Below the pieces are notes generated by a model. The model had not been told where the DNA came from. It was given only the letters and a program-made list of their open reading frames with translations, and ran no database searches. From NCBI GenBank assembly GCA_035508815.1, contig DATJMH010000008.1:1-28144 (forward strand): a stretch of DNA of 28,144 nucleotides, written 5' to 3'. Position 1 is the first letter of the stretch. The number at the start of each line of letters is the position of its first letter. Both the position numbers and the translations under genes were made by a program. Below, piece by piece: positions 6,676-20,023 of this stretch. Source of the DNA: Candidatus Saccharimonadales bacterium. Lineage in GTDB: Archaea; Micrarchaeota; Micrarchaeia; Micrarchaeales; CABMGC01.

Positions 6676-7152
6676 ATGCAAGACCAAGCCCTCAAGTCGT
6701 ACCTGGAGAAACTGGGCATATCCTACAAGGAATACGGGCACAAGCCGGTCTTCACGGTAGACGAGGCCGCATTCCTCAAGAATGAGATTCCGGGCATGCA
6801 CACGAAGAACCTCTTCCTCAAGGACGACAGGGGGAATTTCTACCTGGTATGCATTGCAGCTGAGAAACGCCTTGACATGAAGGCGCTCAGGAAGCGCCTA
6901 GGAGCGGGCAAGCTGCAGTTCGCGACTCCTGAAGAGATGAAGGCAGAGCTGAACCTCACCCCAGGAAGCGTCTCGCTGTTCGGAATCATATACTCAAAGA
7001 GGACCAGGCTGCTTCTTGACAAGGATATATGGGATGCTGCCATCGTATCCTTCCACGCGAACATAAACACAGAAACTCTTGAATTAAGGCATGAGGGTTT
7101 GGAGAAGTTCTATAATTCACTAAGAAACGCAAAGGAAATTATGGTCATCTAA
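6676..7152 (+). CDS. YbaK/ProX family aminoacyl-tRNA editing protein (ProXp-ala/PrdX-like)
   Basis: HKPVFTV, TKNLFLKD, LNLTPGSVSLFG and FHANINT patterns in a 158-aa stand-alone domain. Confidence 0.85.
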   Translation: MQDQALKSYLEKLGISYKEYGHKPVFTVDEAAFLKNEIPGMHTKNLFLKDDRGNFYLVCIAAEKRLDMKALRKRLGAGKLQFATPEEMKAELNLTPGSVSLFGIIYSKRTRLLLDKDIWDAAIVSFHANINTETLELRHEGLEKFYNSLRNAKEIMVI

Positions 7153-7228
7153 GTTCTATACAAACACAAAAATGTCTATTTAAAGTTATTCGGTAAGGCT
7201 TAAGAACCATAAAAATTAGAAAACAGTC

Positions 7229-8377
7229 ATGGGAACAGCTACCAGAAGAGACCTTTATCTAGAGAAGCCGGTTTTGCTAGCAGGACAGCCTAAAAGGACC
7301 ATAGCCGAATATGCAAGCCAGAACGGAATACTCGTACCACGAATATTTGATTCTTTAATTGAGGCAAAACGTTTTGGACTACCTATAATTGCCAGAAGCG
7401 AGCATACCCAAGACTATAATGGTTCATCAGATCTATTCGCAAGTAAGGTGTTAAGAGAAGGCAATAGATTTAGCGGACTTAACGAGTCAGAACTGAAAAA
7501 AGCATTAGATAAGTATAATTTCCACACAGAGAAGCACTGCGATTTGCTCGGAATACACTTTGAGGAGTTCAAGAAGCAATTTTCATATTCTTTCTGGGAA
7601 TTTATAGAAGGTTTCCAAATAAGAGTTGTGGCTGACTCTGCAATCAAATCGCGTTATCATATAACTGCTTATAGGAGAAGGCAGGGAGATGGCGAGCCGA
7701 TTCATGATTATTCCTTCTTTGAAAATGGCAACGTAACAAACTTAACATCCTCTCAGATGCCTAATGAACTTCGAGCTAATCTAGCAAGTCTGATAGATAT
7801 TTATGATTCTATAAGAAATCTTGATAAGTTTGACCCTAATCATTGCCCCATAATGGAGTTTGTTACTACACCAGAAGGTAAACATTACTTTTTGCAATAC
7901 CACAGGTCTCGTGACTTCAGCCAGGCATCTTTCCTATTGGACAGAAAACCGATAAAAGACGAGGCAAGAGCCTTATTTGTCAGAGGAGCAACTCCTCCTG
8001 AAGGCATCACCTGCAAGGTAACTGTAGCTTATGGATGGATAGGCGGCACTGCAAAGTGTAGGCTTCCGAAAGTTGAACAGGGTGCTTTCGATTTTCATAG
8101 TACCGCAGCCTACTCGGAGATTATGGTTCGGAGGAGGCGCCTGCAAATAACAGATTCTGACGACTTAAAATCAGAAATGGAAGAATTTGTTGAGGGCCAC
8201 GGAAGGTATTCAAGATTAATTAAACCAGAAATTTCTGTAATTCTAGACGCTGGGAGGATCTTATCTAAAACTGAGAAGACCAAGCTGGAAAGGCAGGCGG
8301 AAAAGGAAAGCCATGATGTTTATATAAATGTTCATCTGACTTCAGATGGGAGCATCGCCTATCTTAGACGTGCATAA
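7229..8377 (+). CDS. Hypothetical protein, possible divergent ATP-grasp/PEP-synthase N-terminal-like fold; AT-rich
   Basis: 382-aa ORF. LVPRIF...PIIARSE...DYNGSSDLFAS and MEFVTTPEGKHYFLQ resemble PPDK_N-type ATP-grasp motifs. Codon usage is visibly more A/T-ending than its neighbours. Confidence 0.55.
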   Translation: MGTATRRDLYLEKPVLLAGQPKRTIAEYASQNGILVPRIFDSLIEAKRFGLPIIARSEHTQDYNGSSDLFASKVLREGNRFSGLNESELKKALDKYNFHTEKHCDLLGIHFEEFKKQFSYSFWEFIEGFQIRVVADSAIKSRYHITAYRRRQGDGEPIHDYSFFENGNVTNLTSSQMPNELRANLASLIDIYDSIRNLDKFDPNHCPIMEFVTTPEGKHYFLQYHRSRDFSQASFLLDRKPIKDEARALFVRGATPPEGITCKVTVAYGWIGGTAKCRLPKVEQGAFDFHSTAAYSEIMVRRRRLQITDSDDLKSEMEEFVEGHGRYSRLIKPEISVILDAGRILSKTEKTKLERQAEKESHDVYINVHLTSDGSIAYLRRA

Positions 8378-8408
8378 GTAAGACCATTAAGACGAATTAA
8401 CCAAGTAA

Positions 8409-8777
8409 TTAAACCTTGAACCTTGATCTTTCAGTCAGCTCGTACATGTTGCCGTCAGGCGCAATGAAGTGCATCCACCTGTTCCCCTTACCGTCGCCGT
8501 ATATCTCGCCGCACTTTATCCCGTTAGCGCGCAGCTCCTCGGTGCCTTTTTCTATGTCTTCCACAAGGAAGCCGGCCACGGGCGCAGTGGGGAAGAACTT
8601 GGCGTCCTCCCTGTCCATTCCGAAGACCTCGACGAGGTCGCCCCTTTCCGTCTTGAAGACGTTGAAGTCCTCCTCCTGGTGCACAAGCTTCATGTTCATT
8701 GTCTTGCTGAACATGCTGGAGAGCGCACCGAAGTTCCTGGTCCTGGAGCCCAGCCATGCAATCCCTATGACCTTCAT
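8409..8777 (-). CDS. VOC/glyoxalase-like family protein
   Basis: 122 aa with the paired beta-alpha-beta-beta-beta pattern: GFLVEDIEKGTEEL...G, FIAPDGNMYELTE. Confidence 0.85.
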   Translation of the reverse strand: MKVIGIAWLGSRTRNFGALSSMFSKTMNMKLVHQEEDFNVFKTERGDLVEVFGMDREDAKFFPTAPVAGFLVEDIEKGTEELRANGIKCGEIYGDGKGNRWMHFIAPDGNMYELTERSRFKV

Positions 8778-8789
8778 GATACCACAAGC

Positions 8790-9614
8790 TCAGTTCTGCG
8801 ACTCGAAGTGCTTCCTCAGCTCCTCCATTTCCATCACCCTGTAGTTCAGCCCATGGACTATGTGGAGCTCCCTCCCGACTATCCTCGAGATGCTCAGGTC
8901 AAAGGCGTTGAACACGGTCTGGAGATGGCTGAGCTGCTCGGTCAGGAGGTCGGTGGCCTCCTTCTCGCTGACCCCTACGGAAGTGCTCTCTATGTACATC
9001 GTGCTGTACGTCGGCATCTCGCCGTCCGATATCCTGTCTATCCTGGTCTGGACTATGTTTATCTTCCTCTGCAGCTCCCTTATGGTCAGCTCGTTCGGCG
9101 TGGTCGCTCCCTCCTCCTTGGAGAGCTGGAACTCCACGTAGCCCCGCTGGCCCTCGAGGTCCTCCCTGTACTTCTGGACGTCCTCGGCAGAGGAGATGAG
9201 GTTGAACTTGAACGGGAAGTTGGTGTTCATCACTATGCGCTCCCAGTTGTCCGGCGCCTCGGAGAGCCCATCCCCCTTCTCGGCCTCGGCGTTCTCCGCA
9301 GCGAAGACGTACTTGTAGACGTTCGCTGTCAGGTATCCTGTGGCGTAGTAGAGCCCGTTGACGTACTTCAGGACGCAGTTCTGCGACTTCGGCACCCTGT
9401 GGTCCTTGGAGAGCATTATCTCCACGTTCAGGTACTTGGTCAGGAGCGGGAAGACCAGGAAGTCGGCAAAGTTCATGATGAATATTATGCCGAGTATCAG
9501 GACCCCGAGTATTATTATCGGAAGGCTCATGAAGCCGTAGTTGGGCGCGCTGGCAAGCACCAGCACCACCACCGCCGCGGAGGCTCCCATGTAAAGAACA
9601 GTATCTATATCCAT
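8790..9614 (-). CDS. Membrane protein with 2 N-terminal TMs and a cytoplasmic coiled-coil domain (PrgI/TrsD-like candidate)
   Basis: 2 TMs followed by a soluble domain with a central coiled coil. Paralogous to 9614..10423 and coupled to it by a TGATG overlap. Confidence 0.7.
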   Translation of the reverse strand: MDIDTVLYMGASAAVVVLVLASAPNYGFMSLPIIILGVLILGIIFIMNFADFLVFPLLTKYLNVEIMLSKDHRVPKSQNCVLKYVNGLYYATGYLTANVYKYVFAAENAEAEKGDGLSEAPDNWERIVMNTNFPFKFNLISSAEDVQKYREDLEGQRGYVEFQLSKEEGATTPNELTIRELQRKINIVQTRIDRISDGEMPTYSTMYIESTSVGVSEKEATDLLTEQLSHLQTVFNAFDLSISRIVGRELHIVHGLNYRVMEMEELRKHFESQN

Positions 9615-10423
9615 CAGGCTCCACTCATTGTCTTCTGGCGTATCCTCTCGCTGACTGTCTCGACCGGTATCATGTACTCCGGCTCCAGGAGGGTCAGCAG
9701 CTCGCTGCCCTTGGCCACGTAGGCATTCACGCCGAGAGTGGCGCTTATCCCTCCGGCAAGCTCCTCGGCCCTCTGGTAGGCTATGTTAGAGGCCTCCTCG
9801 TCGTTGCCTCCCAGCGCGCTGACCATGGCGAAGAGCACCAGGGCCTGCGAGTGCGACTTGCTCACGCTGTCAAGTAGGTTCCTCCACATGGTCACCTCCC
9901 CCCTCGCCCTCTCCATCCCGCCGCGATGCTGGTCCCCATCCACGCTCTGCATGCTCCTGTACTTCTCCTCGGTCTCGTTGAGCATGGCGCGCAGCTTTGT
10001 TATGTACTGGTCCTTGTTGACCGCATACATCTCCGCCGAGAGCTTCATGGGCGTCTTCCCCAGGGTGAGTATCCTGCCGAACAGCTTCGAGAGGTCGGCC
10101 TTCTCCTCCTTGTTCATCTCGGTGCCGGACCTGTAGATCGGTATCTTTATGAATGCGCTTGCATAGACGTTCTGGCCCTCCCTCCTCACTATCGAGTTCC
10201 CCGAAGGCGCCATCGTGAAAGCCTCCCCGCCGTATATGACGAGGTTGGCTCCCTTCTTCTTGACAACCGACTCAAACATGTAGATGTAGTTCTTGGTGAG
10301 GAACGCGACAAGGGCCGCGAGCATGGCTATTATCGCCAGCGCCGCGCTCAGGAGGTGTATGCTCACCACCTCCGACGCGACCGTTATCATTATGGCCACG
10401 CCTATGCATATCCCGAAGAGCAT
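9614..10423 (-). CDS. Membrane protein with 2 N-terminal TMs and a cytoplasmic coiled-coil domain (PrgI/TrsD-like candidate)
   Basis: Same architecture as 8790..9614, with a similar C-terminal segment (VSALGGNDEEASNIAYQRAEEL vs TSVGVSEKEATDLLTEQLSHL). The start may lie further upstream (see findings). Confidence 0.7.
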   Translation of the reverse strand: MLFGICIGVAIMITVASEVVSIHLLSAALAIIAMLAALVAFLTKNYIYMFESVVKKKGANLVIYGGEAFTMAPSGNSIVRREGQNVYASAFIKIPIYRSGTEMNKEEKADLSKLFGRILTLGKTPMKLSAEMYAVNKDQYITKLRAMLNETEEKYRSMQSVDGDQHRGGMERARGEVTMWRNLLDSVSKSHSQALVLFAMVSALGGNDEEASNIAYQRAEELAGGISATLGVNAYVAKGSELLTLLEPEYMIPVETVSERIRQKTMSGA

Positions 10424-10481: not shown

Positions 10482-11591
10482 CTATAGCCTTATCCTTCCG
10501 GAGAGCTGCGCCATGCCGCCTATGAACTCCGCGACCTGGAGTATTATCGCGTAGGTCAGCGCCATTATCAGCGCCGGGTAGAAGAGCACCGAGAGCCAGT
10601 AGGAGTCCATGCAGACCTGTATGTTGCCCAGCGTCTGCTCGAGAGGCGAGGTCGCAGTAAGCGCGTTGGTCTGCGCGCCGGTCCCGAGGCCGTACTGGGT
10701 CAGCGCGGTGGTGGCCTCGCCCGTGCACTGGATGGTCTGCGTGTTTGTGAAGTAGTAAGCTACCGAGAACAGGAGCGGAAGCACCATGTAGAACCCTATG
10801 GCCACGGCTATCATCATGCCTCCCAGCCCCCTTGTGGGTATCAGCGACCTGAGGATGACCCCGGGGATCAGGAAGACGGGTATCGCGATGTACATGAATG
10901 TCAGTATTATCCAGAACTCCGCGTAGAGCACCCCTATGACCTCGAGCTGGAGGTCTATCATGACAAGCGCCGGGATGTAGAACGCGCCGTATATCGCATA
11001 GTAGAAGAGCTGGGGCACTACCGCGCAGTCGTTGGCGTTCGGCGGAGGGTATCCTGTGATGCCCAGCAGGGGGTTCGGGACCAGCGGCGGGCAGAAGTAG
11101 AACTTGACGTTCAGCCAGAACCCGTCCAGGGCCGCTATGTTGAAGAGCTGGGAAATCTCGGCGTTGAGCTGGGTGATGGTGTTGCTTATGTACGTCAATG
11201 CCACGTTGTACGGATTGACGGGCCCCGTGGCTATTCCAGGTATCAGCCCGAACATCACGCTGGCTATGAAGACGAAGCCTATGACTATTATGGCGCTTGC
11301 CGCCGCCTCGTAGTACTCGCCAATGCCGAAGTTCCTTATCCTCTCGCTCCTCAGGAGGACGCCCATCCCGAATATCACGCTCGCTATGCCGAAGGAGATG
11401 AAGACCGCTATGAAAGCCACCGGCTCCCACTGCTCCCAGTAGTTCGCGAGCGCCTGGTTTATCTGGCTGCAGTACCAGGGCGCGGTGCCCTGCACCGCCG
11501 GGGCGCATGCCGCGGTATCGGCGCCGAGCGGATGCAGGGCTAGCAGCACGAGCACCAGGGCCGGAACCAATATCTTTGCGAGTCTATCCAT
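10482..11591 (-). CDS. VirB6/CedA-like polytopic membrane protein, paralog 6 of 6
   Basis: Signal/TM, Cys loop, RIRNFGIGEYYE motif, PGVILRSLIPTRGLGGMMIAVAIGFYMVLP motif and a C-terminal TM ending IGG. The ORF is clear; the family call is inferred. Confidence 0.7.
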   Translation of the reverse strand: MDRLAKILVPALVLVLLALHPLGADTAACAPAVQGTAPWYCSQINQALANYWEQWEPVAFIAVFISFGIASVIFGMGVLLRSERIRNFGIGEYYEAAASAIIVIGFVFIASVMFGLIPGIATGPVNPYNVALTYISNTITQLNAEISQLFNIAALDGFWLNVKFYFCPPLVPNPLLGITGYPPPNANDCAVVPQLFYYAIYGAFYIPALVMIDLQLEVIGVLYAEFWIILTFMYIAIPVFLIPGVILRSLIPTRGLGGMMIAVAIGFYMVLPLLFSVAYYFTNTQTIQCTGEATTALTQYGLGTGAQTNALTATSPLEQTLGNIQVCMDSYWLSVLFYPALIMALTYAIILQVAEFIGGMAQLSGRIRL

Positions 11592-11598
11592 TGTAGCA

Positions 11599-12687
11599 CT
11601 AAAGAATCCTCTCCAGCATCGAGAGGAGATCCATCCTTTCTCCTATAGCCTGTGAAAAGTCAACTATAAAGACGTCGACTATGACAAGGTTTATCAGCGG
11701 TATGAGCGTCAGCCCTATCCAGACCAGCCCCACGTATATGAAGACGGGCTCAGGCACCGTGGTCGCGGTTGTAGTATACACGGAGCCGCCCAGCGCGAAG
11801 AGGCCCGCGAGCCCGGAGCTCGTGTATGTGGTTACAAGCGGAGGCAGGAACCAGATGGCGCTCAGCGCAGCGCCGTTCGCGAAGGCTAGCGACTGCGCCT
11901 GGTCAAGCCCGTAGTTTATGAAGCCGTAGTTCATGCAGACAAGCGCAGGGAAGACCACCCCGAGCCCCAGCGCGAAGGCTATCATGGCGCCGCCGAAGGT
12001 CCTGCTGACCCCGAATATCCTGGCGACCAGGCCCAGCGACATCAGTATTGCGAAGATCAGCGCCGACGCTGAGAGCATTATCAGCTGGACGTCGTTCGCG
12101 AGCGCGAAGGCGTAGATGAAGTCTATTGCGGGGCCCAGGTACTTGAAGCCCGTGTCCTTGGGGTAGAATGAGAAGGGAGCGGCGAGCCCTATGCTGCCCC
12201 CTGCCACAGGTATGTCGATCCTTATGTTGTAGCTGGGCTGGAGGGAGACTGCGACCAGGACGAAATAATACTGCGCGTTGTTCAGGTTCGCGGTAAAGAC
12301 GTTGAACTGGTACATGTCGCATATCGAGAGCGAGTAGATGTTGCCCATCGCGCCGGTGCATTCGTTCGGCACCAGGTTGTAGGTGTTTAGGAAGTTCAGG
12401 TTTGTGCCGTATATTAGGCTCGCAGCGAAGAGGAACGCGAATATCAGGAGCAGGGAGAGCATCACGTCGTATATCTTCACCCTGGTCCAGGACCGTATGT
12501 CGCTCCTGCCGACGAACTGGCTGATCCCGTATATCAGCGCCAGCACCGCCAGCACCGCGAGTGCTGCAAGCGCAGAGACCGAGAACCAGGCCTGGTAGGT
12601 GGAGTTGAAGCAGCTTCCAATCCCCGCAGCGGCGCATGTGCTGGTCGCAAGGAGGAATGAGTGCAATAAGGCGAGGTCTACTATCAT
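11599..12687 (-). CDS. VirB6/CedA-like polytopic membrane protein, paralog 5 of 6
   Basis: DIRSWTRVKIYD and LGLVARIFGVSRTFGGAMIAFALGLGVVFP motifs. ATGA overlap with the upstream paralog. Confidence 0.7.
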   Translation of the reverse strand: MIVDLALLHSFLLATSTCAAAGIGSCFNSTYQAWFSVSALAALAVLAVLALIYGISQFVGRSDIRSWTRVKIYDVMLSLLLIFAFLFAASLIYGTNLNFLNTYNLVPNECTGAMGNIYSLSICDMYQFNVFTANLNNAQYYFVLVAVSLQPSYNIRIDIPVAGGSIGLAAPFSFYPKDTGFKYLGPAIDFIYAFALANDVQLIMLSASALIFAILMSLGLVARIFGVSRTFGGAMIAFALGLGVVFPALVCMNYGFINYGLDQAQSLAFANGAALSAIWFLPPLVTTYTSSGLAGLFALGGSVYTTTATTVPEPVFIYVGLVWIGLTLIPLINLVIVDVFIVDFSQAIGERMDLLSMLERIL

Positions 12688-13970
12688 ATTATCCTCTCAA
12701 ACAGCCTGTTGCTCTGGAGAGACGGCGAGCCGAGCAGGTCGCCCAGCGCCTCCAGGAGGTCGAAAGATATTACAAAGGAGATGCCCAGCCCAATCAGCTT
12801 GCCTATGGCTATGGCGACCACCTCCACGTAGACGTCGAGGTTATTGATGAAAGGCGTGCCTCCACCTGTGAAGTCGCTGAAGACCGCGTTGAGGAAGGAC
12901 CATGCCTTGGAGAGGATGCTCTGCGTGAGGAAGGCCCAGGTACTCTGGCTCGTGGGAAGGTTCTGGCCCTGGCAGTTGCCCGCCACAAAACCTATCACGT
13001 CTGCAGCGATGTCGGATGTTGCGGCCATCGTGCAGGCAAATGATCCCGCGTTCGAGGCCGTCGCGTCGGTCTGCGGCACCACGGCCAGCGCCGAGAACGG
13101 GAAGTAAAGCGCTGGGAAGATGATGTAGAATGAGATGAACAGCGCGAGGAAGGAGCCTCCCGCGGCGCGGGTCCATGGGAAGGAGCGGAAGAGTATCCCG
13201 GCGTAGAGGAATATCGGGAAGAGGAAGTATATGACGTAGAACATGAAGATGGTGGCCACTCCGAGTATGACTATGATGAACACCGGGGACTCCTCAAAGA
13301 GGATCAGCTGGTAGAAGAGCGCCAGCCCTCCCAGCGGAGTGATGGTGAAGCTCGGCGCGTAGTTCGCTATCGAGGGACCGAAGTTGACCGAGATGACAAG
13401 GCTGGTCGCTATATCGTACAGCGGCTGGATTATGAGGGTGCCCACGAAGACGCCGAGGAGCGGCAGGATCTGCCCATCCAGGACGTTGGTGCATATGCTG
13501 GTGTAGAGCGTCTTCACGTTGCCGGTGCCTATCCCGCCGGTCTGCGAGACCCCGCCAAGGTTGGCCAGGTTGGAGAAGAACGCGGCGAAGCCCCCCACAG
13601 TGGCAAGGCCCCCGATTATCACGAGTATCATCAGGAGGTTGAAGAAGCTCTCAACGTATTCCGTCTTCGCGAAATCCACTAGCTTGTTTATGCCGAAGCC
13701 CCTGCCTATGCCGTAGACCGCAGAGATCACCACCAGGACCATCAGCACTATGAGGAGCGCCAGGTCGGCAACGCTCTGGAATATGCTACCGGTCCCCGGA
13801 GTGAATGCATTAGTAACTATTGCCCCCCCGGGCCCAGAAGACCCGGCGACCTGGTTGTTGAAGAGGTCGGTGCAGTACTGGTTCTGCACCGGCCCTGTTG
13901 ATGATGCCGCACTCGCTGTAGTGACCAGCAGCGCGAAGACGGCAAGATACAATATCAGTCTGTTCCTCAT
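12684..13970 (-). CDS. VirB6/CedA-like polytopic membrane protein, paralog 4 of 6
   Basis: KLVDFAKTEYVE and AGILFRSFPWTRAAGGSFLALFISFYIIFP motifs. Confidence 0.7.
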   Translation of the reverse strand: MRNRLILYLAVFALLVTTASAASSTGPVQNQYCTDLFNNQVAGSSGPGGAIVTNAFTPGTGSIFQSVADLALLIVLMVLVVISAVYGIGRGFGINKLVDFAKTEYVESFFNLLMILVIIGGLATVGGFAAFFSNLANLGGVSQTGGIGTGNVKTLYTSICTNVLDGQILPLLGVFVGTLIIQPLYDIATSLVISVNFGPSIANYAPSFTITPLGGLALFYQLILFEESPVFIIVILGVATIFMFYVIYFLFPIFLYAGILFRSFPWTRAAGGSFLALFISFYIIFPALYFPFSALAVVPQTDATASNAGSFACTMAATSDIAADVIGFVAGNCQGQNLPTSQSTWAFLTQSILSKAWSFLNAVFSDFTGGGTPFINNLDVYVEVVAIAIGKLIGLGISFVISFDLLEALGDLLGSPSLQSNRLFERII

Positions 13971-13977
13971 GCAACCA

Positions 13978-15474
13978 CTAAAGCAGCCTGCTTATTCCGA
14001 ACAGGCTCGTGTCCCCTCCCAGTACCGTTGATATGCCCTTGACTGCGGAAAGCAGCATCAAGATGTTGAATACCGGGAGCAGCAGAGTGAATACGAACAC
14101 CTGGCCGTAGAAGTTCGAGAGCGCAAGCCATGTCCTCTCCATGTTCGCTGGCGAGCAGTTGAATCCCGGAATGTCTGGCTCCGGCAGCGTCCCGGAGAAG
14201 GTGCCCACTGTATCCCTTATGGCAAGGTAGAGGCCTACCCCCGGGACTGAATACGAGCCCCCGAGAAGCGCCTCTGCCTCGAGCACGCTTCCGTTGGGCG
14301 GCCAGCAGCCGTAGTAGTTGATGATGTAGTCTATCCTCGGGAAGACGTAGAAGTTTATCTTGCTGGTGTCGTAATCTATCTTCGGGTTGGGGTTCGAGCT
14401 TCCAGGCAGCCAGCTGCCTATGGTGAATGCTTGAGGCTCCTGGCCGGTGAGGGTCATGGCTGGGAAAGCGGTCGAGGTCGCGCCGACGGCTGTCAGCGGG
14501 CTCGTCGCGTTGGTGAGCGAGGCGTACTCGAACAGGCTGAGTATAGGATATAGGAACATGCCCACAAGCACTATCGCTATCACCATTCCGCCGGCCCTGC
14601 GCGTGAACGACGACGCCCTCATTATCAGCCCCGCGGCCAGTATGTACGGCCAGCCGAAGAGCATCAGCATTATGAGCAGCATCTGGAGAAGGCCCATGTA
14701 GAACGCCAGCTGAGACTCCGTGTTCACATATATCGTACCGGCCCTCAGCTTGGTGTAGAACTGGAAGGGGGTGTAGCTGTAGACTGCGGTCGGGCCTCCG
14801 TACGGGTACGCAATGCACGGGGCGTTGGGCTCCGACATGCAGACTATCTCGGTCGGCGTGAAGGTGGCCAGCACGTAGAAGTACGTCTCATAGACGTTGA
14901 GGATGTCGAGGCTGAACGCCTCCTGGCTGGTCAGGTTGGCCGTTATGACATACGTCTCACCGAGGCCGAAATCTATGTTCTGCGTCGGGTCCCTGCTGCC
15001 CTGCGACGAGCTACCGCCGTTTATTATCTGCGAGCAGACGGCCATCGTGGGTCCGGGTATCATGGTGTTGGTGATGTCGAGCTGCGAGCCGGCGAGCTGC
15101 GTGCATATGTTCTTCACGCTGGTGGTCACCCCGGTGGCTCCGGAATAGACCGCGCTGCCATACACGTTGAATATCATTATCACTATGACAAGCACGACCA
15201 CGGTGCCTGTGACCTGGGCGAACTCGTTTATCGCCGCGGCCTTGAGCCTGCTGTTGCCCAGGAGCACCGCGGCCGCGTAGTACATCAGGGAAACCATGAT
15301 CCCCAGCATGGTGGCTAGGATGATCACGGGCATCCACGTATAGAAAGCCGAGACGTCTGTCGTCAGCGGGCAGGTGGTGGCGCCGGGGCATGGGTTGGTC
15401 ACCCCGGAAGAGTCGGCGATCACGGCCGAGAGAGACAGCAGCACGAGCACCAGTGCGAGAGTGAACTTCCTCAT
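13978..15474 (-). CDS. VirB6/CedA-like polytopic membrane protein, paralog 3 of 6
   Basis: RLKAAAINEFAQ and AGLIMRASSFTRRAGGMVIAIVLVGMFLYP motifs. Largest extracellular loops of the set. Confidence 0.7.
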   Translation of the reverse strand: MRKFTLALVLVLLSLSAVIADSSGVTNPCPGATTCPLTTDVSAFYTWMPVIILATMLGIMVSLMYYAAAVLLGNSRLKAAAINEFAQVTGTVVVLVIVIMIFNVYGSAVYSGATGVTTSVKNICTQLAGSQLDITNTMIPGPTMAVCSQIINGGSSSQGSRDPTQNIDFGLGETYVITANLTSQEAFSLDILNVYETYFYVLATFTPTEIVCMSEPNAPCIAYPYGGPTAVYSYTPFQFYTKLRAGTIYVNTESQLAFYMGLLQMLLIMLMLFGWPYILAAGLIMRASSFTRRAGGMVIAIVLVGMFLYPILSLFEYASLTNATSPLTAVGATSTAFPAMTLTGQEPQAFTIGSWLPGSSNPNPKIDYDTSKINFYVFPRIDYIINYYGCWPPNGSVLEAEALLGGSYSVPGVGLYLAIRDTVGTFSGTLPEPDIPGFNCSPANMERTWLALSNFYGQVFVFTLLLPVFNILMLLSAVKGISTVLGGDTSLFGISRLL

Positions 15475-16689
15475 CTAACTACCCCAGAACGGCCCTATGC
15501 CGAAGATCTGTCCCATCGCCTCGAGGCTCTTGTGGAGCCCAACTGCGAAGCCTATCGTTATCCCGACGTCAAGAGCTATAAGGAAGATGGCCTGGAACAG
15601 GTACTGCGCAGTCTCCATCACGAAGTTGTTAAGCAGGCTTGGCACGCTCACGAGCCCCTGGAAGATCTCGCTCACAGCGGCCAGGAACCCGCCGCTGCCC
15701 TGCGCCTGGAACGAATAGAAGTTGGTCCAGACATTGATAAGGGCTCCGATTCCGGAGATGCTGGCGGTGCTGGCGTACTCCGGGTTGGTGAAGAGCTGGT
15801 TTATGGGCAGGTTGTTCAGCTGGTATCCCGGGTTCAGGTACGGGGTCGCATAGGGGTTGCACGAGCCCCCGTTTATGCAGTACGTCCAATTGACGACGTA
15901 GTAATTCATCGCGAGGGTGAGCGGGAAGACGAAGTAGAAGGCTATGGCTATGGCCACCAGGCCGTTGGACACCTCCCTGAGCTTGGGCCCGGTGAATGCC
16001 AGGGAGCGCATTATTATCGCGACCGGTATGACCAGGGTGAGTGCCAGCGCCTCTATGACGTTGAGCGAGAGGAAGATCACGAACAGGAGGCCGAAGCTCA
16101 CCACCACCAGCGGCGCGAGCACCGTGTTGAGGACGTAGCTGTACTCGTATATAACGGTCGCCGGCTCGTCAGTGCCCGTTATCGCTATCTTCAGCCCCGT
16201 CCCGGAGTTCCTGATGGGGACGGCCTGCCCAATCTCCGACACGAAGAAGTTCACCAGTGTCGCATCGACCATCAGCACGGTGCCTGCGGAGAAGAGCCCG
16301 GTGACCAGGGCTATGCCCTTGGCGAACATGAGGTTGCCTATGTAGTAGCTTGCGAACTGGAAGGGATCCTGGTAGTTGAGCGGCGCCGCAGCGGTGCCGA
16401 CCAGGGCGCTGCCTATGCTGCACGCGCTGAACGAGAGCGTGAAGAGGACGATTATCAGTATTATGCTGAATATTCCTTGTATGTACTCGTACTTCACCAC
16501 ACCGCGTACCCTCTCCCTGGTGTTTCCCGGGAAGAGGCCGCTCAGCCCGTAGGCCATGGCGCTTATCATGAGCGACATCACAACCACGAGCGCAGTTATG
16601 GAGAGCCAGTTGTTGTTGTTCAGGAAGCTTATGTTGTATGCGCACTGTGACAGGAAGGTGCTCGACGATGAGAGGAGGAAGCCGATCAT
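15475..16689 (-). CDS. VirB6/CedA-like polytopic membrane protein, paralog 2 of 6
   Basis: RVRGVVKYEYIQ and PVAIIMRSLAFTGPKLREVSNGLVAIAIAFYFVFP motifs. Its stop directly abuts the next ATG. Confidence 0.7.
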   Translation of the reverse strand: MIGFLLSSSSTFLSQCAYNISFLNNNNWLSITALVVVMSLMISAMAYGLSGLFPGNTRERVRGVVKYEYIQGIFSIILIIVLFTLSFSACSIGSALVGTAAAPLNYQDPFQFASYYIGNLMFAKGIALVTGLFSAGTVLMVDATLVNFFVSEIGQAVPIRNSGTGLKIAITGTDEPATVIYEYSYVLNTVLAPLVVVSFGLLFVIFLSLNVIEALALTLVIPVAIIMRSLAFTGPKLREVSNGLVAIAIAFYFVFPLTLAMNYYVVNWTYCINGGSCNPYATPYLNPGYQLNNLPINQLFTNPEYASTASISGIGALINVWTNFYSFQAQGSGGFLAAVSEIFQGLVSVPSLLNNFVMETAQYLFQAIFLIALDVGITIGFAVGLHKSLEAMGQIFGIGPFWGS

Positions 16690-16691
16690 AG

Positions 16692-18062
16692 CTACACCAG
16701 TTTGAGCCTCCTTCCCAGACCCAGCCTCGTGGTCCCTCCGAGCATCCTCGCTATGTTGTTGGTGAGCGCGTAGAAGAGCATCAGGTCGAGCACCAGCATG
16801 ACGAAGAGCTGCAGTATCAGGTATATCCCGTATTTGACGAAGAGGTTGAGCGCCGGGTAGAGGTCGCTTATGGAGTCGAACGCGAGGGTAAACTCAAGCT
16901 TCCCGTTCGTCCATGCCTGCCCGACGAAGGAGAGGGCCTGGTTGAAAACACCCGTGATCAGGTTGGACTGGTCCGGCGCCGCAGCTGCTGAAGTGCTGCC
17001 CGTAAGCGCCTGGGTCACCGTGTTCGGATCCGGCCCTAGCGGCGTGCAGAAGCTGTTGCTGCCTCCGCTAAGTATGCTGCAGAAGTAGCTCGAGACCGGC
17101 GCATTGAAGAGTATCAGTATGCCTGGCCATATGAGCGCGAACCCGATGCCGTAGGCTATCAGCGAGCCCCCTATCCCCCTGGTCAGAGGGAGCGCCCTGA
17201 ATACCAGCCCGATAGGTATGAGTATGGTCAGGCCTATGGTGATGAAATACGGGAGCAGGATGACCTGGCCCGCGTATATGAGCTTGACCGGCACCAGCAG
17301 GAAGAGTATGAAGTCTATGAAGATAGACTGCCACTGGCCCAGGTAGATGTAGTTGACGTTGGCAAGCAGGCTTGCGAATATGTAGAAGTCCACCCCGGAC
17401 CTGAAGACGGGAAGGTATGGCGTGAACGTAACAGGCAGCCCAGCATAGGTTATCCTTATGCCGTTGTTGTTGTCCTGGTTCTCTATGATCCCAAGCCCTA
17501 TGACCAGAGGCGCTATGTTGTCTATCCCGAAATTGGCCTCGTTATTCACGGTGCAGAGGTAGCTCTCTGCGCTGTAGGTCAGGTCGTTGATGTTTGTGGC
17601 CACGGGCCCTGAAACAGGGGTGCCGCTCGACGGCTGGCCGCTGAGGATAACACCTATTCCGCTCACAAGCGTTATAACGGAGAATATCACCGCTATCAGT
17701 ATCGCCGACTTGGTGATCTCCCAGTACTCCCTGGGCAGCCAGTTCCTTATGTTTGTCGATGGAACAAGCCTGCTTATTATGTATCCCAGGCCCACTATGT
17801 CGAATGAAACCATCAGGCCTATCAGCGCGGCTATCACCGCATCCTGGAAGACATTCGCCGGGAACCCGGCAAAGCCCGGGATCTGCGTGGGCGCAGTGCT
17901 AGGACCGCCGCTTCCCGTGCCGCCGAAGATGTTAGTGCATTCCTGTGTCGGCGTGACAAGGGTTGTGGTGGCGGTCGTATCTGCCATGATGCCGGAGAGC
18001 ATGACCCCCACAAGAACTAAAGAGAGCACCATGTAGGGTCTCAGTCTCCCCGGATTCGGCAT
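16692..18062 (-). CDS. VirB6/CedA-like polytopic membrane protein, paralog 1 of 6
   Basis: NIRNWLPREYWE and PIGLVFRALPLTRGIGGSLIAYGIGFALIWP motifs. Confidence 0.7.
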   Translation of the reverse strand: MPNPGRLRPYMVLSLVLVGVMLSGIMADTTATTTLVTPTQECTNIFGGTGSGGPSTAPTQIPGFAGFPANVFQDAVIAALIGLMVSFDIVGLGYIISRLVPSTNIRNWLPREYWEITKSAILIAVIFSVITLVSGIGVILSGQPSSGTPVSGPVATNINDLTYSAESYLCTVNNEANFGIDNIAPLVIGLGIIENQDNNNGIRITYAGLPVTFTPYLPVFRSGVDFYIFASLLANVNYIYLGQWQSIFIDFILFLLVPVKLIYAGQVILLPYFITIGLTILIPIGLVFRALPLTRGIGGSLIAYGIGFALIWPGILILFNAPVSSYFCSILSGGSNSFCTPLGPDPNTVTQALTGSTSAAAAPDQSNLITGVFNQALSFVGQAWTNGKLEFTLAFDSISDLYPALNLFVKYGIYLILQLFVMLVLDLMLFYALTNNIARMLGGTTRLGLGRRLKLV

Positions 18063-18082: not shown

Positions 18083-18090
18083 GCTATAAA
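18083..18090 (-). promoter_or_regulatory. TATA box for the paralog operon (probably leaderless mRNA)
   Basis: TTTATAGC on the minus strand about 20 nt upstream of ATG 18062. Confidence 0.5.
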
Positions 18091-18193
18091 TAAGCGTTAT
18101 CCGAGAGCCGACATCAGGATACAGAGCACACCCCATATCCCTGTTGTAGTGCAGTTCGCAGCGCTTGAGGCAAGCCACAGGCACGGGGCCCGT

Positions 18194-20023
18194 TCAGCCC
18201 TCCTCGTTCTCCGCGGAGGCGGCTCCCTTGCCCTTGTTCTTCTTCGCTTCAAGAGAGGACTCGTCATCTGCCTTGCCCTCGTTCTTCCCGGTTTCTGCAG
18301 GCCTTCCCCTCTCAACCACCACTGGGTGGTGCTTTATCTCATGAACCTCGGCATGGCCTCCATGGCTTCCGGCGGCCTTCTGCATGGCAGCGTCTTCTGC
18401 GACATCGCTCGCGAACTTCTCGCTGAACTTCTTCGGGTCATAGGAATTAGCAATCACTTTCAGACGAGCATTCTCTGCCGCATTATACGACTTGAAGACT
18501 CCGCCTCGCCGCTTCCTCTGCATGTCAAAGTTCGGGATGTAGTCGGGCTTGTAACTTTTGTCAAGACTTGCCCTGAGCTGCTGGAACCTTGCCACTGCGG
18601 CCTCTCCGGTGGCGATTGCGGCGGCAGGCACCGTGGCACCTACAAGTGCCGCGTTGTCCTTCGCAGTTGAGACGCTCTCAGCCAGGCTCGGTTTTTCGGG
18701 ATAAAGTCTGTCGTAGGTCTGATTGAATATGGCCTTGTGCTGGTCATCGCTTATCTCGCCCTTCATCAGCTTTATGTTCTCAACTTCCAGCTTCTTGACG
18801 CCCTCGTCCAGCTCCTTCTTCCTCTTCTCCATGCCCTCCACTCTCGCATTGATGACGTCGTTCTCGTGGCTGAGCTCCCTAGTCTGCTTTGCGGCCTCGG
18901 TGGGGCTTAGTTTTTCGTCCTTAGCGATCTTGCTTATCTTCTCGTTGTTCTCCGCTATCGCACCCTTCTGCTTGGCTATTACCTTATTCAAGTGCTCCTC
19001 TTCCGCCTTGAATATCGTTTTCTTCAGCTTCGGAGGATTGGAATTCAGCTTGCTGAGGCCATAAACGCCCAGCGGCCCGAGTACCGGTACCCTCGGTCCG
19101 GTGAAGGCGGCGCCCTCCTTGGTGGCCGTCCATGCATCTCCAAGGGTCTTGAACTTCCACTGTTTTACCTGGGCCATCTTCTGGTTCTTTACCTGCTCCT
19201 CCTTGCTCAACACCCTCACTCTGGGAACGCCGGAAGAGTCATCCGTCTTAACCCCGGGATTCCTGACGGGTATCTTTGTAATCCTTGTGAACAATACGGG
19301 CCTGGGGGCTGCGCCCTTGACAGGCACACGCTTGAAGCCTATCGGTATCTTTCCCAGGACTGCGACCACTCCTGCCGCTGCACTCCTCGTCCCCTTTCCT
19401 GCTATCACCTTAGGCGCCATCATCGCAGCTCCTGCCGCCCCGGTGCCTGCCGCCATCTTAACAGGTCCTCCGGTTTCAGTTGCCGCCCCCCTGCTCCTCT
19501 TTCCTGTTATTACCTTGGGCGCCATCCCTGCCACCCCGCCCACGGCAGCCGTGGTGCCTGCTGCCATCTTAACCCATCCTCCGCTTCCGGCAGCCATCCT
19601 GCCCTTCTTCCCTCCTATCACCTTCGGGCTCATGCCAGGCCCTCTGCCTCCCGTCGGGTTGGGCATCGCCGCAAGCATGGCAAGCCGGGATCCCTCCCTG
19701 AGGTTATTCCTGGCCACCTTCTTCTGCATCCCGGTAGGCCCTCCGCCTCTCCTGCGCCTGAAGAATATTCCCCTCTGGCTCTCTATTCCAGCTCCTTTCG
19801 GTGCGTCGAGATAGGTCCTCAGCGGGAACCCGGATTTCGCCATGCCGCCCCTGGAGCCGCCTCCAACCGAGCCCATGCCCCCAAGGAGCGAGGCGACGCC
19901 GAAGAGGTTGAACAGGCTGAACCCCCTCGTGGCCCCGGCAGCAGCCGCTATCAGCACTATGATCACCATTATCGGCACTAGCGCGTTAAGGTTCCCTACT
20001 GACAGGATCGGAGGTAAAAACAA
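18194..20023 (-). CDS. Membrane-anchored basic Gly/Ala/Lys-rich protein with tandem repeats and a coiled coil
   Basis: TTG start, N-terminal hydrophobic segment(s), low-complexity basic region, heptad-like stretch (HLNKVIAKQ...KLEVENIKLMK) and a charged tail. Confidence 0.75.
   Translation of the reverse strand: MFLPPILSVGNLNALVPIMVIIVLIAAAAGATRGFSLFNLFGVASLLGGMGSVGGGSRGGMAKSGFPLRTYLDAPKGAGIESQRGIFFRRRRGGGPTGMQKKVARNNLREGSRLAMLAAMPNPTGGRGPGMSPKVIGGKKGRMAAGSGGWVKMAAGTTAAVGGVAGMAPKVITGKRSRGAATETGGPVKMAAGTGAAGAAMMAPKVIAGKGTRSAAAGVVAVLGKIPIGFKRVPVKGAAPRPVLFTRITKIPVRNPGVKTDDSSGVPRVRVLSKEEQVKNQKMAQVKQWKFKTLGDAWTATKEGAAFTGPRVPVLGPLGVYGLSKLNSNPPKLKKTIFKAEEEHLNKVIAKQKGAIAENNEKISKIAKDEKLSPTEAAKQTRELSHENDVINARVEGMEKRKKELDEGVKKLEVENIKLMKGEISDDQHKAIFNQTYDRLYPEKPSLAESVSTAKDNAALVGATVPAAAIATGEAAVARFQQLRASLDKSYKPDYIPNFDMQRKRRGGVFKSYNAAENARLKVIANSYDPKKFSEKFASDVAEDAAMQKAAGSHGGHAEVHEIKHHPVVVERGRPAETGKNEGKADDESSLEAKKNKGKGAASAENEEG
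19383..19640 (-). repeat. Intragenic tandem repeat, about 3 copies of 105-111 bp (35-37 aa)
   Basis: PKVI codons recur at + positions 19404, 19509 and 19617. GGTGCCTGC(C/T)GCCATCTTAAC occurs at 19442 and 19553. Confidence 0.85.

Follow-up and report, generated by a model that had tools for sequence, protein, structure and literature searches.

A conserved array of six paralogous membrane proteins in Micrarchaeota and its proposed place in a machine related to type IV secretion

Like other DPANN archaea, Micrarchaeota live only with a host, and the means by which the two cells exchange material are still to be explained. The window analyzed here, a 28,144-nucleotide stretch of a Micrarchaeota MAG, holds six back-to-back minus-strand ORFs (A1-A6) at 10482-18062. 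A preliminary description made from the sequence had read their products as six paralogs with conserved membrane cores and divergent external loops, forming either a fixed hetero-oligomeric ring or a set of interchangeable host-specificity subunits. The locus raises the question of whether the six genes are a fixed set and what such a set would build. The array and the region upstream of it contain the following features.

18194..20023, minus strand: upstream gene, 609 aa; membrane-anchored, basic, Gly/Ala-rich protein with M-x-PKVI-x-GK repeats
18085..18093, minus strand: TATA-like box TTATTTATA, read from the sequence, 23-31 nt upstream of the A6 ATG
16692..18062, minus strand: A6, 456 aa; opens the array; 5-TM core preceded by a signal peptide or N-terminal anchor
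15475..16689, minus strand: A5, 404 aa; the most divergent signature copy of the six (A-x3-R...S-N, not G...GG)
13978..15474, minus strand: A4, 498 aa; the largest outer loops and 8 cysteines
12684..13970, minus strand: A3, 428 aa
11599..12687, minus strand: A2, 362 aa
10482..11591, minus strand: A1, 369 aa; closes the array; six long helices in the AF2 model

Neighboring ORFs are spaced by 2 nt (A5/A6), 0 nt (A4/A5), 7 nt (A3/A4), a 4-nt overlap (A2/A3) and 7 nt (A1/A2), a range that fits translational coupling. The TATA-like box is a candidate promoter from which the array transcript would be near-leaderless. Genes related to the 609-aa upstream gene occupy the equivalent place in five loci of the genus (72-112 bits) and different operon positions in three further genera, and it is an accessory operon gene in this family; no Pfam or NCBIfam family could be assigned to its product by hmmscan. 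Among sequencing runs, one DNA run matched, a metagenome from a wetland and the probable source; none of the runs listed was an RNA run.

Six paralogs with one membrane core

Pairwise similarity among A1-A6 was weak yet collinear using BLASTP and phmmer. Profiles built from 19-24 orthologs each and compared using hhalign matched one another with probabilities of 96.7-99.6% (E 1e-10 to 1e-25) over 200-330 columns, as compared to less than 3% when the A profiles were set against four control proteins from the locus (other membrane proteins or small ones). The proposed paralogy was thus borne out, and A1-A6 are six ancient, non-redundant paralogs of one membrane-protein family that has no name. 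The six proteins had no match in Pfam at E<0.1 or in NCBIfam, the CedB and CedD models included, and PDB sequences searched with the HMM profile of A7, a lone paralog from a smaller gene module, returned only chance-level ABC-transporter matches. A search for fused domains in long family members found a single CARDB domain in one 1339-aa member.

All six proteins carry a 5-TM core of ~265 aa and constant length after the N-terminal signal or anchor. Conservation within this core was counted in a 236-sequence superfamily alignment using P0001 numbering, and all three motifs that had been described as shared were real, with the correction that the spacing in the motif following TM1 is x5 rather than x4. 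E92 of this motif was present in 200/236 sequences. The signature G-x3-R-x4-T-R-x2-GG-x2-IA...P, which is predicted to be cytoplasmic, was nearly invariant across the six, with P272 found in every sequence (236/236), R248 in 232, R254 in 230, G244 and G257 in 209 each and A262 in 196. The third motif, the C-terminal [LI]-G, retained G358 in 202/236.

The variable parts (64 to 355 aa) were lower in identity than the core both within the genus (30-48% as compared to 52-64%) and across the order (18-28% as compared to 33-43%), in line with the original reading of conserved cores and divergent loops. Loop and core were compared by amino-acid identity and indel load, and dN/dS was left aside because the closest orthologs are only ~60% identical and synonymous sites are saturated. 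The loops had also been called rich in cysteines and sequons. N-x-S/T occurred at 2.8 per 1000 aa in the six proteins as compared to 6.2 in the rest of the genome and was absent from three of the six, so the sequon part of this claim failed. Cysteine was modestly enriched (1.23% as compared to 0.79%), nearly always in predicted outer segments and mostly as pairs inside one segment. K/R residues concentrated at three conserved short loops with the cysteines in other segments, and in the predicted topology the conserved polar residues are all on the cytoplasmic face.

Six genes in one order

The relatives were MAGs of Ca. Micrarchaeota together with Ca. Micrarchaeum sp. A_DKE. We examined 35 complete arrays from about ten families and all 35 consisted of exactly six genes (22 arrays belonging to this order, 13 to other families); the only two arrays with fewer than six were both cut by contig ends. 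The gene sequence 6-5-4-3-2-1 was identical in every array of the order. Some genomes carried two complete six-gene arrays, indicating that the array was duplicated as a unit. Members of the A family were found in 111 of the 121 phylum genomes of at least 80% completeness. Three genomes of the order (G028, G056 and G015) seemingly lacked the array, and all three had an ortholog of ATPa, the operon ATPase. This ortholog was at the contig edge in G015 and within 8 kb of the contig start in G028, suggesting that the array gaps in the three genomes are probably assembly breaks and not losses.

In the tree, A1-A6 and A7 formed seven perfect clades. Class-wide orthologs of A1 (36/36, support 0.98), A2 (35/36, support 0.98) and A4 (36/36, support 0.75) each fell into one clade, the A3 clade was sister to A7 (support 0.93), and A6 orthologs, with an identical array position throughout the order, had a clade of their own. 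The duplications are older than the class radiation for at least three positions (1, 2 and 4).

These trees, proposed at the outset as a check, gave stable orthologous groups, which favored a fixed set over lineage-specific expansion, and copy number and order were not random among relatives. The rival reading, in which lineage-specific expansion yielded interchangeable or alternative subunits for host specificity, has in its favor outer loops that are highly variable in length and sequence. However, every relative had a one-to-one ortholog of each paralog at the same position, there were no lineage-specific duplications or losses within arrays, and the duplications at three or more positions predate the class radiation. 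Given the fixed number, the fixed order and the per-position clades we rejected this alternative, and consider it highly improbable.

Operon context and the proposed machine

Two further genes follow A1 in the window.

9614..10423, minus strand: B1, 269 aa; 2-TM hairpin with a soluble domain; paralog of B2
8790..9614, minus strand: B2, 274 aa; 2-TM hairpin with a domain modeled as the VirB4 N-terminal-domain fold

In most relatives the operon encodes a candidate VirB2-like pilin and a 6-TM protein ahead of the six paralogs, with two 2-TM proteins and a CedB/VirB4-like ATPase after them. The order c3-c4-A6..A1-B1-B2-ATPa-c6-c5, in which c3 is the candidate VirB2/TrbC-like pilin, c4 the 6-TM protein, c6 a zinc-ribbon membrane protein and c5 a coiled-coil protein, was kept in families f1 and f3 of this taxonomic order and, elsewhere in the class, in family f7. 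B1 followed A1 in 21 relatives and ATPa followed B2 in 17. The operon is split over three contigs in this genus, and this genome has all of the parts, contig C22 carrying c3-c4 and contig C37 carrying ATPa-c6-c5. A minimal module of a c3-like gene, A7, B7 and ATP7 was repeated as the same quartet in 19 genomes, and profile comparison using hhalign linked B1 to B2 (97.3%) and to B7 (99.2%).

B1, B2 and c4 could not be assigned to a Pfam or NCBIfam family using hmmscan. The AF2 model of B2 (pLDDT 78.6) returned TrwK/VirB4 for all of the top 9 Foldseek matches. Using VIA, B2 residues 67-271 aligned to TrwK ~220-384 with Z 11.4 and an rmsd of 3.1 Å over 153 residues, and the top five rows were all TrwK/VirB4 while the next unrelated row had Z 6.5. 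As modeled, the soluble domain of B2 has the VirB4 N-terminal-domain (NTD) fold, and in relatives it is encoded beside ATPa, an ATPase of the VirB4/HerA clade. ATPa matched DUF87, AAA_10 and TraG P-loop in Pfam. Its best NCBIfam match was CedB (NF041017; 1e-18, 67 bits as compared to an equivalog cut-off of 700), followed by CedD, VirB4-like CD1110/Mbov_0397 and TraC. The score, far under the cut-off, ruled out CedB/TedB orthology and makes ATPa a CedB relative within the clade. The c3 protein has a signal peptide and two hydrophobic helices with a basic loop between them. It had no Pfam or NCBIfam match by hmmscan, and its nearest Atlas cluster was TrbC/VirB2 pilin (score 0.95, 212 shared features; PF04956 in 17% of members), with 8 of the 10 best family-bearing matches sharing a family or clan with the best.

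The preliminary description had compared the array to VirB6, and here sequence, fold and context gave different answers. PF04610 had no match to the six proteins or anywhere in the genome, and an alignment of 116 VirB6 sequences, compared by hhalign with the superfamily profile and with every one of the paralog profiles, gave at most 0.4%, with a sensitivity limited by the narrow VirB6 alignment (at least 40% identity to VirB6 of the Agrobacterium Ti plasmid). Membership of the VirB6/TrbL family by sequence was ruled out on these results. The sole pointer of the A family to CedA was an Atlas lead (0.88) to a cluster with CedA1 (PF27251) in 23% of its members. Foldseek matches to the A1 AF2 model (pLDDT 79.6) were weak, with the best TM-scores for R388 TrwI/VirB6 chains. 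Chain 7o3v_F had the top Foldseek probability (0.80, TMt 0.41, E 0.4) and ranked third using VIA (Z 8.8, rmsd 7.2 Å, 246/261 residues aligned), values in a range where generic long-helix packing can score. DotA followed with Z 8.3. In both fold searches a T4SS polytopic protein came first among full-length matches, and R388 VirB6, the best full-length PDB match, is no more than suggestive of a VirB6-like fold for A1. The context agreed with the comparison, as in relatives the 5-TM core proteins share the operon with ATPa and c3, placing a polytopic protein with a VirB4-type ATPase and a candidate VirB2-type pilin.

It could be argued that the A proteins form a membrane complex functionally unrelated to the T4SS-like genes, such as a transporter or a complex for envelope or S-layer biogenesis, that shares their operon in some lineages. 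The A proteins have no assigned sequence family, the VirB6 fold match is statistically insecure, and the array does not adjoin the ATPase in this genus or in most of the arrays fetched from other orders. However, at least 17 arrays of this order, drawn from about 16 genera, were syntenic with B1/B2/ATPa, as were those of family f7, and the triad of A, B and ATPase together with a candidate pilin recurs independently in the small module. The leading place of T4SS polytopic proteins in both fold searches and the cytoplasmic location of the conserved polar residues, where a motor would dock, also argue against an unrelated complex, and we regard it as improbable.

We read the operon as a chromosomal, vertically inherited Micrarchaeota machine with kinship to type IV secretion and to Ced/Ted DNA import. 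HerA/VirB4-clade ATPases are hexamers. We favor, as the probable reading, that the six paralogs are the membrane part of this T4SS/Ced-related machine and assemble into one hetero-hexameric ring, a VirB6/CedA-like platform. One copy of each paralog would form a pseudo-sixfold ring in the cytoplasmic membrane, in the place that VirB6 and CedA have in the T4SS and in Ced. Its nearly invariant cytoplasmic face, made up of E92 after TM1, the stretch R248-x5-R254-x2-GG that links TM3 to TM4, and a basic C-terminus, would dock the VirB4-NTD-like proteins B1 and B2 and the hexameric ATPase. The diverged outer loops would form the external face, from which the pilin may polymerize or through which substrate may pass; the substrate may be DNA, as it is for Ced, or some other macromolecule that host and symbiont exchange.

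Modeling of the hexamer, proposed earlier as a check, was carried out for the A1+A2 pair, the full set being 2517 aa. The pair scored 0.34 as compared to 0.00 for the best control, with agreement between runs in at least 66% of contacts and a partner pLDDT of at least 60. The mark of this test was reached by 58/80 solved complexes and 2/110 mismatched pairs, and those reaching it with scores of 0.60 or less were only 7 of the 80 solved complexes and both mismatches. The predicted contact weakly favors an A1-A2 complex.

A T4SS/Ced-like machine could also be built with no single hetero-hexamer, each paralog forming its own homo-oligomer, or the six forming sub-complexes (for example two hetero-trimers, or a pentamer plus one) or stacked layers, or acting at different assembly stages. 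VirB6 of R388 is a pentamer, A7 in the small module evidently works without five partners, and the A1-A2 prediction is weak. Sulfolobales CedA/CedE paralogs have separable import and export roles (PMC11868833). Against these arrangements, the number six was invariant in the 35 complete arrays and was kept when the whole array duplicated, it matches the symmetry expected of a hexameric ATPase, and the tight coupling and fixed gene order suit co-assembly. We consider them a less likely outcome than the single ring, if a real one.

Significance and comparison with known systems

No description of the array was found in the literature on secretion-type, VirB4, VirB6 or Ced-type systems of Micrarchaeota and DPANN, including the Mia14 and A_DKE genome papers. 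The operon offers a concrete, nearly universal and chromosomal candidate for the host interface, with a candidate pilin and a motor that can be recognized as a split VirB4-like ATPase. The membrane core of the operon was multiplied six-fold and has been frozen since before the class radiation. If the ring reading holds, this would be an unusual case of a homo-oligomer becoming an obligate hetero-oligomer in a secretion-type machine. The operon also extends T4SS-derived archaeal systems past Crenarchaeota and parallels the essential chromosomal T4SS of CPR epibionts. Named targets are available in cultured A_DKE, Mia14 and ARM-1; the A1 ortholog of A_DKE is at around 814-815 kb of NZ_CP060530.1. 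In cryo-ET, the envelope of the micrarchaeon ARM-1 showed a barrel-like docking platform of 21 nm, so far unexplained, at the entry site of host nanotubes (PMC11329633). It is a speculative and rather doubtful identification that a 1:1:1:1:1:1 ring with its split VirB4-like motor and pilin is the symbiont-side junction machine seen as this platform, passing DNA or cytoplasmic material to or from the host.

Rickettsiales rvh systems, which the preliminary description had cited, also have tandem diverged VirB6-type genes with variable hydrophilic extensions in a reduced-genome, obligately host-associated organism. The rvh proteins are bacterial PF04610 members of varying number, whereas the array studied here comes from archaea, has no sequence relationship to them and always numbers six. 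As the organism is an archaeon and its proteins have no PF04610 match, rvh serves as an analogy and not as a relative, and the resemblance is at most convergence.

The VirB6/TrbL proteins themselves (PF04610; TrwI of R388, PDB 7o3v; VirB6 of the A. tumefaciens Ti plasmid) are likewise inner-membrane and polytopic with long helices and a large outer loop, and are likewise encoded with VirB4 and VirB2 counterparts (the VirB2 counterpart here being a candidate). TrwI is reportedly a homo-pentamer capped by VirB5, in contrast to the six distinct subunits here, and counterparts of VirB5, VirB8, VirB9 and VirB10 were not recognized in this system.

The T4SS of CPR epibionts is similar in being near-universal, chromosomal, VirB4-centered and without a relaxase in ultra-small host-dependent cells, and its VirB6 and PrgI (VirB3-like) genes were reported essential for epibiotic growth (PMC12102498). 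It differs in being of the bacterial MPF-FATA type, with recognizable VirB6/PrgI profiles and without a six-fold paralog array.

Ced (CedA/CedE, CedA1, CedA2, CedB/CedD; Sulfolobales), Ted (TedA, TedC, TedB; Thermoproteales) and the Micrarchaeota machine are all chromosomal, non-mobile, pared-down archaeal relatives of the T4SS, and in each a polytopic protein of 5-7 TM accompanies a HerA-clade/VirB4-like ATPase and a VirB2-like pilin, a candidate one in Micrarchaeota. Paralogs come in pairs in Ced too, and two proteins share the VirB4-NTD fold (PMC11868833, PMC9905601). Whereas Ced has one or two paralogs, the Micrarchaeota machine has six in a fixed tandem array, a VirB4-NTD-like domain carried by two separate 2-TM proteins and not by the ATPase, and the extra conserved genes c4, c6 and c5, and it belongs to a DPANN symbiont.

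Six paralogs in a fixed order

The array consists of six closely packed minus-strand ORFs, A1 to A6 (10482-18062; A1 at 10482-11591, A6 at 16692-18062), encoding proteins of 369, 362, 428, 498, 404 and 456 aa with successive spacings, read from A6 to A1, of 2, 0 and 7 nt gaps, one 4-nt overlap and a 7 nt gap. A6 is transcribed first and a TATA-like box was read from the sequence 23-31 nt 5' of its start. No Pfam or NCBIfam model matched A1-A6 at E<0.1. Pairwise BLASTP alignments among the six were collinear but weak (25-39 bits). To compare the copies by profile, 19-24 orthologs per copy were gathered from related genomes and the resulting group profiles were aligned using hhalign. Probabilities were 96.7-99.6% for all pairs, with E from 1e-10 to 1e-25 and 200-330 aligned columns, as compared to <3% for the A profiles against four of the locus's other membrane or small proteins.

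The preliminary description had proposed either a fixed hetero-oligomeric ring or a set of interchangeable host-specificity subunits. Six genes in the sequence 6-5-4-3-2-1 were found in 22 of 22 arrays of the order that were uncut by contig ends, one of which has a 5'-truncated first gene, and each gene of these arrays best matched the window paralog at the same position. Two further arrays of the order are shortened by contig ends to 3 and 4 genes. Arrays from other families had exactly six genes in 13 of 13 cases. In a maximum-likelihood tree, A1-A6 and a lone paralog, A7, each formed a perfect clade (support 0.65-0.99), with A7 sister to A3 (0.93). Class-wide orthology was recovered for positions 1, 2 and 4 (support 0.98, 0.98 and 0.75); positions 3, 5 and 6 formed coherent clades whose deep links the tree leaves unsettled. 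Two separate, complete hexa-arrays occur in some genomes from other Micrarchaeia orders (L071/L072 in G131, L073/L074 in G055, L077/L078 in G108) and positional orthology is kept in each of the paired arrays, indicating that the array was duplicated as a whole unit. Invariant number, invariant order and per-position clades support a fixed set of six, and gene number, order and trees contradict interchangeable subunits or lineage-specific expansion. Together these sequence comparisons indicate that the six-fold duplication is ancient and that the copies are not interchangeable.

A profile search detected the A family in 111 of the 121 genomes of the phylum that were at least 80% complete; it was not detected with this profile in the other ten, which belong to five families. 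A1 orthologs were located on contigs labelled Candidatus Micrarchaeota, Micrarchaeaceae and Micrarchaeia, one of them from the cultured Ca. Micrarchaeum sp. A_DKE. Clear A1 orthologs also occur in public bins labelled Marsarchaeota, Methanothrix or 'bacterium' (L098, L116, L141, L152, L159, L087); these are probably contigs of Micrarchaeota placed in the wrong bin or given the wrong label.

Conserved core and variable outer segments

Residue conservation was counted in a superfamily alignment of 236 sequences (P0001 numbering). The three motifs originally reported as shared by all six proteins, an amphipathic motif after a TM helix, an arginine-containing hairpin and a C-terminal [LI]-G, proved real by this measure, with the spacing in the first corrected from x4 to x5. 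E92, after TM1, was present in 200 sequences, R248 in 232, R254 in 230 and the C-terminal [LI]-G in 202; the G...GG...A residues flanking R248/R254 were also conserved, and one proline, P272, was invariant across the whole alignment.

The AF2 model of A1 (pLDDT 79.6, pTM 0.67) contains six long helices, and hydropathy, charge distribution and this model together give a predicted build in which a 5-TM core comes after an N-terminal signal or anchor. In this build the conserved polar residues all lie on three short K/R-rich turns, presumably cytoplasmic, and the variable segments are on the opposite side of the membrane. The core measures ~265 aa in every member and the variable parts 64-355 aa, with within-genus identity of 30-48% in the variable parts as compared to 52-64% in the core. 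The outer loops had been described as rich in cysteines and sequons. The cysteine enrichment held but was modest (1.23% in the six proteins vs 0.79% genome-wide, mostly pairs inside single outer segments), whereas sequons were depleted (2.8 vs 6.2 per 1000 aa) and absent from three of the six proteins.

Operon context, motor and putative pilin

Families f1 and f3, which belong to this order, and family f7 of the class have an operon in common, c3-c4-A6..A1-B1-B2-ATPa-(~100-aa ORF)-c6-c5, where c3 is a putative VirB2-like pilin, c4 a 6-TM protein, ATPa a CedB/VirB4-like ATPase, c6 a zinc-ribbon membrane protein and c5 a coiled-coil protein. In the window's genus this operon is broken into three pieces, and arrays of several other orders also lie away from the ATPase. 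A second, minimal module (c3-like-A7-B7-ATP7) was found elsewhere in 19 genomes; no copy was detected in the genome of the window, a 475-kb MAG that is 50% complete.

Operon pieces and associated features
Piece 1, window (contig C8): 609-aa gene (genus- or family-specific), array and B1-B2
Piece 2, contig C22: c3-c4
Piece 3, contig C37: ATPa-c6-c5
Window 18194-20023, minus: 609-aa protein directly upstream of the array; membrane-anchored, very basic, Gly/Ala-rich, coiled coil
Window 7229-8377, plus: 382-aa ORF, no Pfam match, inside an AT-rich stretch (window 7001-8400, GC 0.39 vs ~0.56)
Window 8409-8777, minus: interval in the same region
G000:C37:9216-9512, minus: conserved ~100-aa ORF directly after the ATPase gene
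G000:C33:12967-14577, plus: HerA/VirB4-clade ATPase, a third paralog of 536 aa that scores 109 bits with the ATPase profile of the small module
L020:4690-7866 (G010), likewise L019, L026, L053-L068: small module of VirB2-like c3, A7 (~345 aa), 2-TM B7 and a short CedB/VirB4-like ATPase (~375 aa)

The 609-aa protein carries three M-x-PKVI-x-GK repeats and its gene is kept at the same place in the genus, and three other genera of the family have weaker relatives, placed either in the A1-B1 interval or upstream of A6. The AT-rich stretch occupies the position where the ATPase comes after B2 in other genera, and may reflect an insertion or rearrangement by which the operon of this genus was divided. 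The ~100-aa ORF, also found just downstream of L021 16800-18317 and in L079-L081, matched ATPase profiles weakly (26-40 bits) and resembles a small partner or a C-terminal piece that has become detached. The third ATPase paralog, in the window's own genome (G000), is away from any A-family gene. In G010 two class-III-signal pilin-like genes (L020:923-2011) are found at a distance of 3 kb from the small module.

ATPa contains DUF87/HerA, AAA_10 and TraG P-loop domains, and NCBIfam ranked CedB (1e-18) and CedD first, followed by VirB4-like conjugation ATPases and TraC. A VirB4-type N-terminal domain (NTD) is absent from ATPa. B1, B2 and B7 are paralogs (97-99.6% by profile comparison), all three having two TM helices plus a ~200-aa soluble domain. 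In a PDB search with the B2 AF2 model (pLDDT 78.6), the best nine Foldseek matches were all R388 TrwK/VirB4 (probability up to 0.99). VIA-align superposed 153 residues of the soluble domain on TrwK residues 220-384 with Z 11.4 and rmsd 3.1 A; Z was 6.5 for the unrelated row that came next. With the NTD fold modelled for B2 and an ATPa that lacks this domain, VirB4 is thus divided here between NTD-like proteins anchored in the membrane and an ATPase of its own. The arrangement is reminiscent of Ced, in which CedB and CedD divide the VirB4 NTD between them (PMC11868833). The c3 protein has a T4SS pilin build, its nearest Atlas cluster being TrbC/VirB2 (score 0.95).

A putative ring and its relation to known systems

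Foldseek matches to the A1 model were generally poor, with R388 TrwI/VirB6 chains giving the highest TM-scores and 7o3v_F the highest probability (0.80, TMt 0.41, E 0.4). In a Foldseek-independent search TrwI/VirB6 ranked third (246/261 residues) with a Z of 8.8, in the range the tool flags as possibly generic for long helices. The near-full-length matches among the top rows were two, TrwI/VirB6 and the Dot/Icm polytopic protein DotA (Z 8.3). The earlier likening to VirB6 is plausible for fold and position. It does not hold for sequence: A profiles matched a narrow alignment of 116 VirB6 sequences at no more than 0.4% (hhalign). Because of this null result and the generic range of the Z score, we treat the A family as plausibly working like VirB6/CedA and not as a member.

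One copy of each paralog could form a pseudo-sixfold ring matching a hexameric motor. Its invariant cytoplasmic face would be the docking site for B1/B2 and ATPa, and the diverged, disulfide-bearing outer loops would form an external face at the pilus base or channel mouth. The ring is supported by the number six, invariant even through whole-array duplication, by genes that are tightly coupled and keep one order, and by the ATPase clade, which is hexameric. Complex prediction for A1+A2 scored 0.34 vs 0.00 for the best control (runs agreeing in at least 66% of contacts, partner pLDDT at least 60). Of 80 solved complexes 58 reached the mark, as did 2 of 110 mismatched pairs; at 0.60 or below it was reached by just 7 of the 80 and by both mismatches. 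This prediction weakly supports the ring.

DPANN archaea are not treated in the Ced/Ted papers (PMC9905601, PMC11868833), and the Mia14 and A_DKE papers name type IV pili, Sec and Tat, with conjugation-like exchange as speculation only; none of the papers searched links Ced, VirB4 or VirB6 to Micrarchaeota in such a way. In the micrarchaeon ARM-1, cryo-ET revealed a 21-nm barrel at the host-nanotube docking site (PMC11329633), and it is possible that this barrel is tied to the machine encoded by the array. The nearest precedent for a substrate would be DNA, imported or exported as in Ced.
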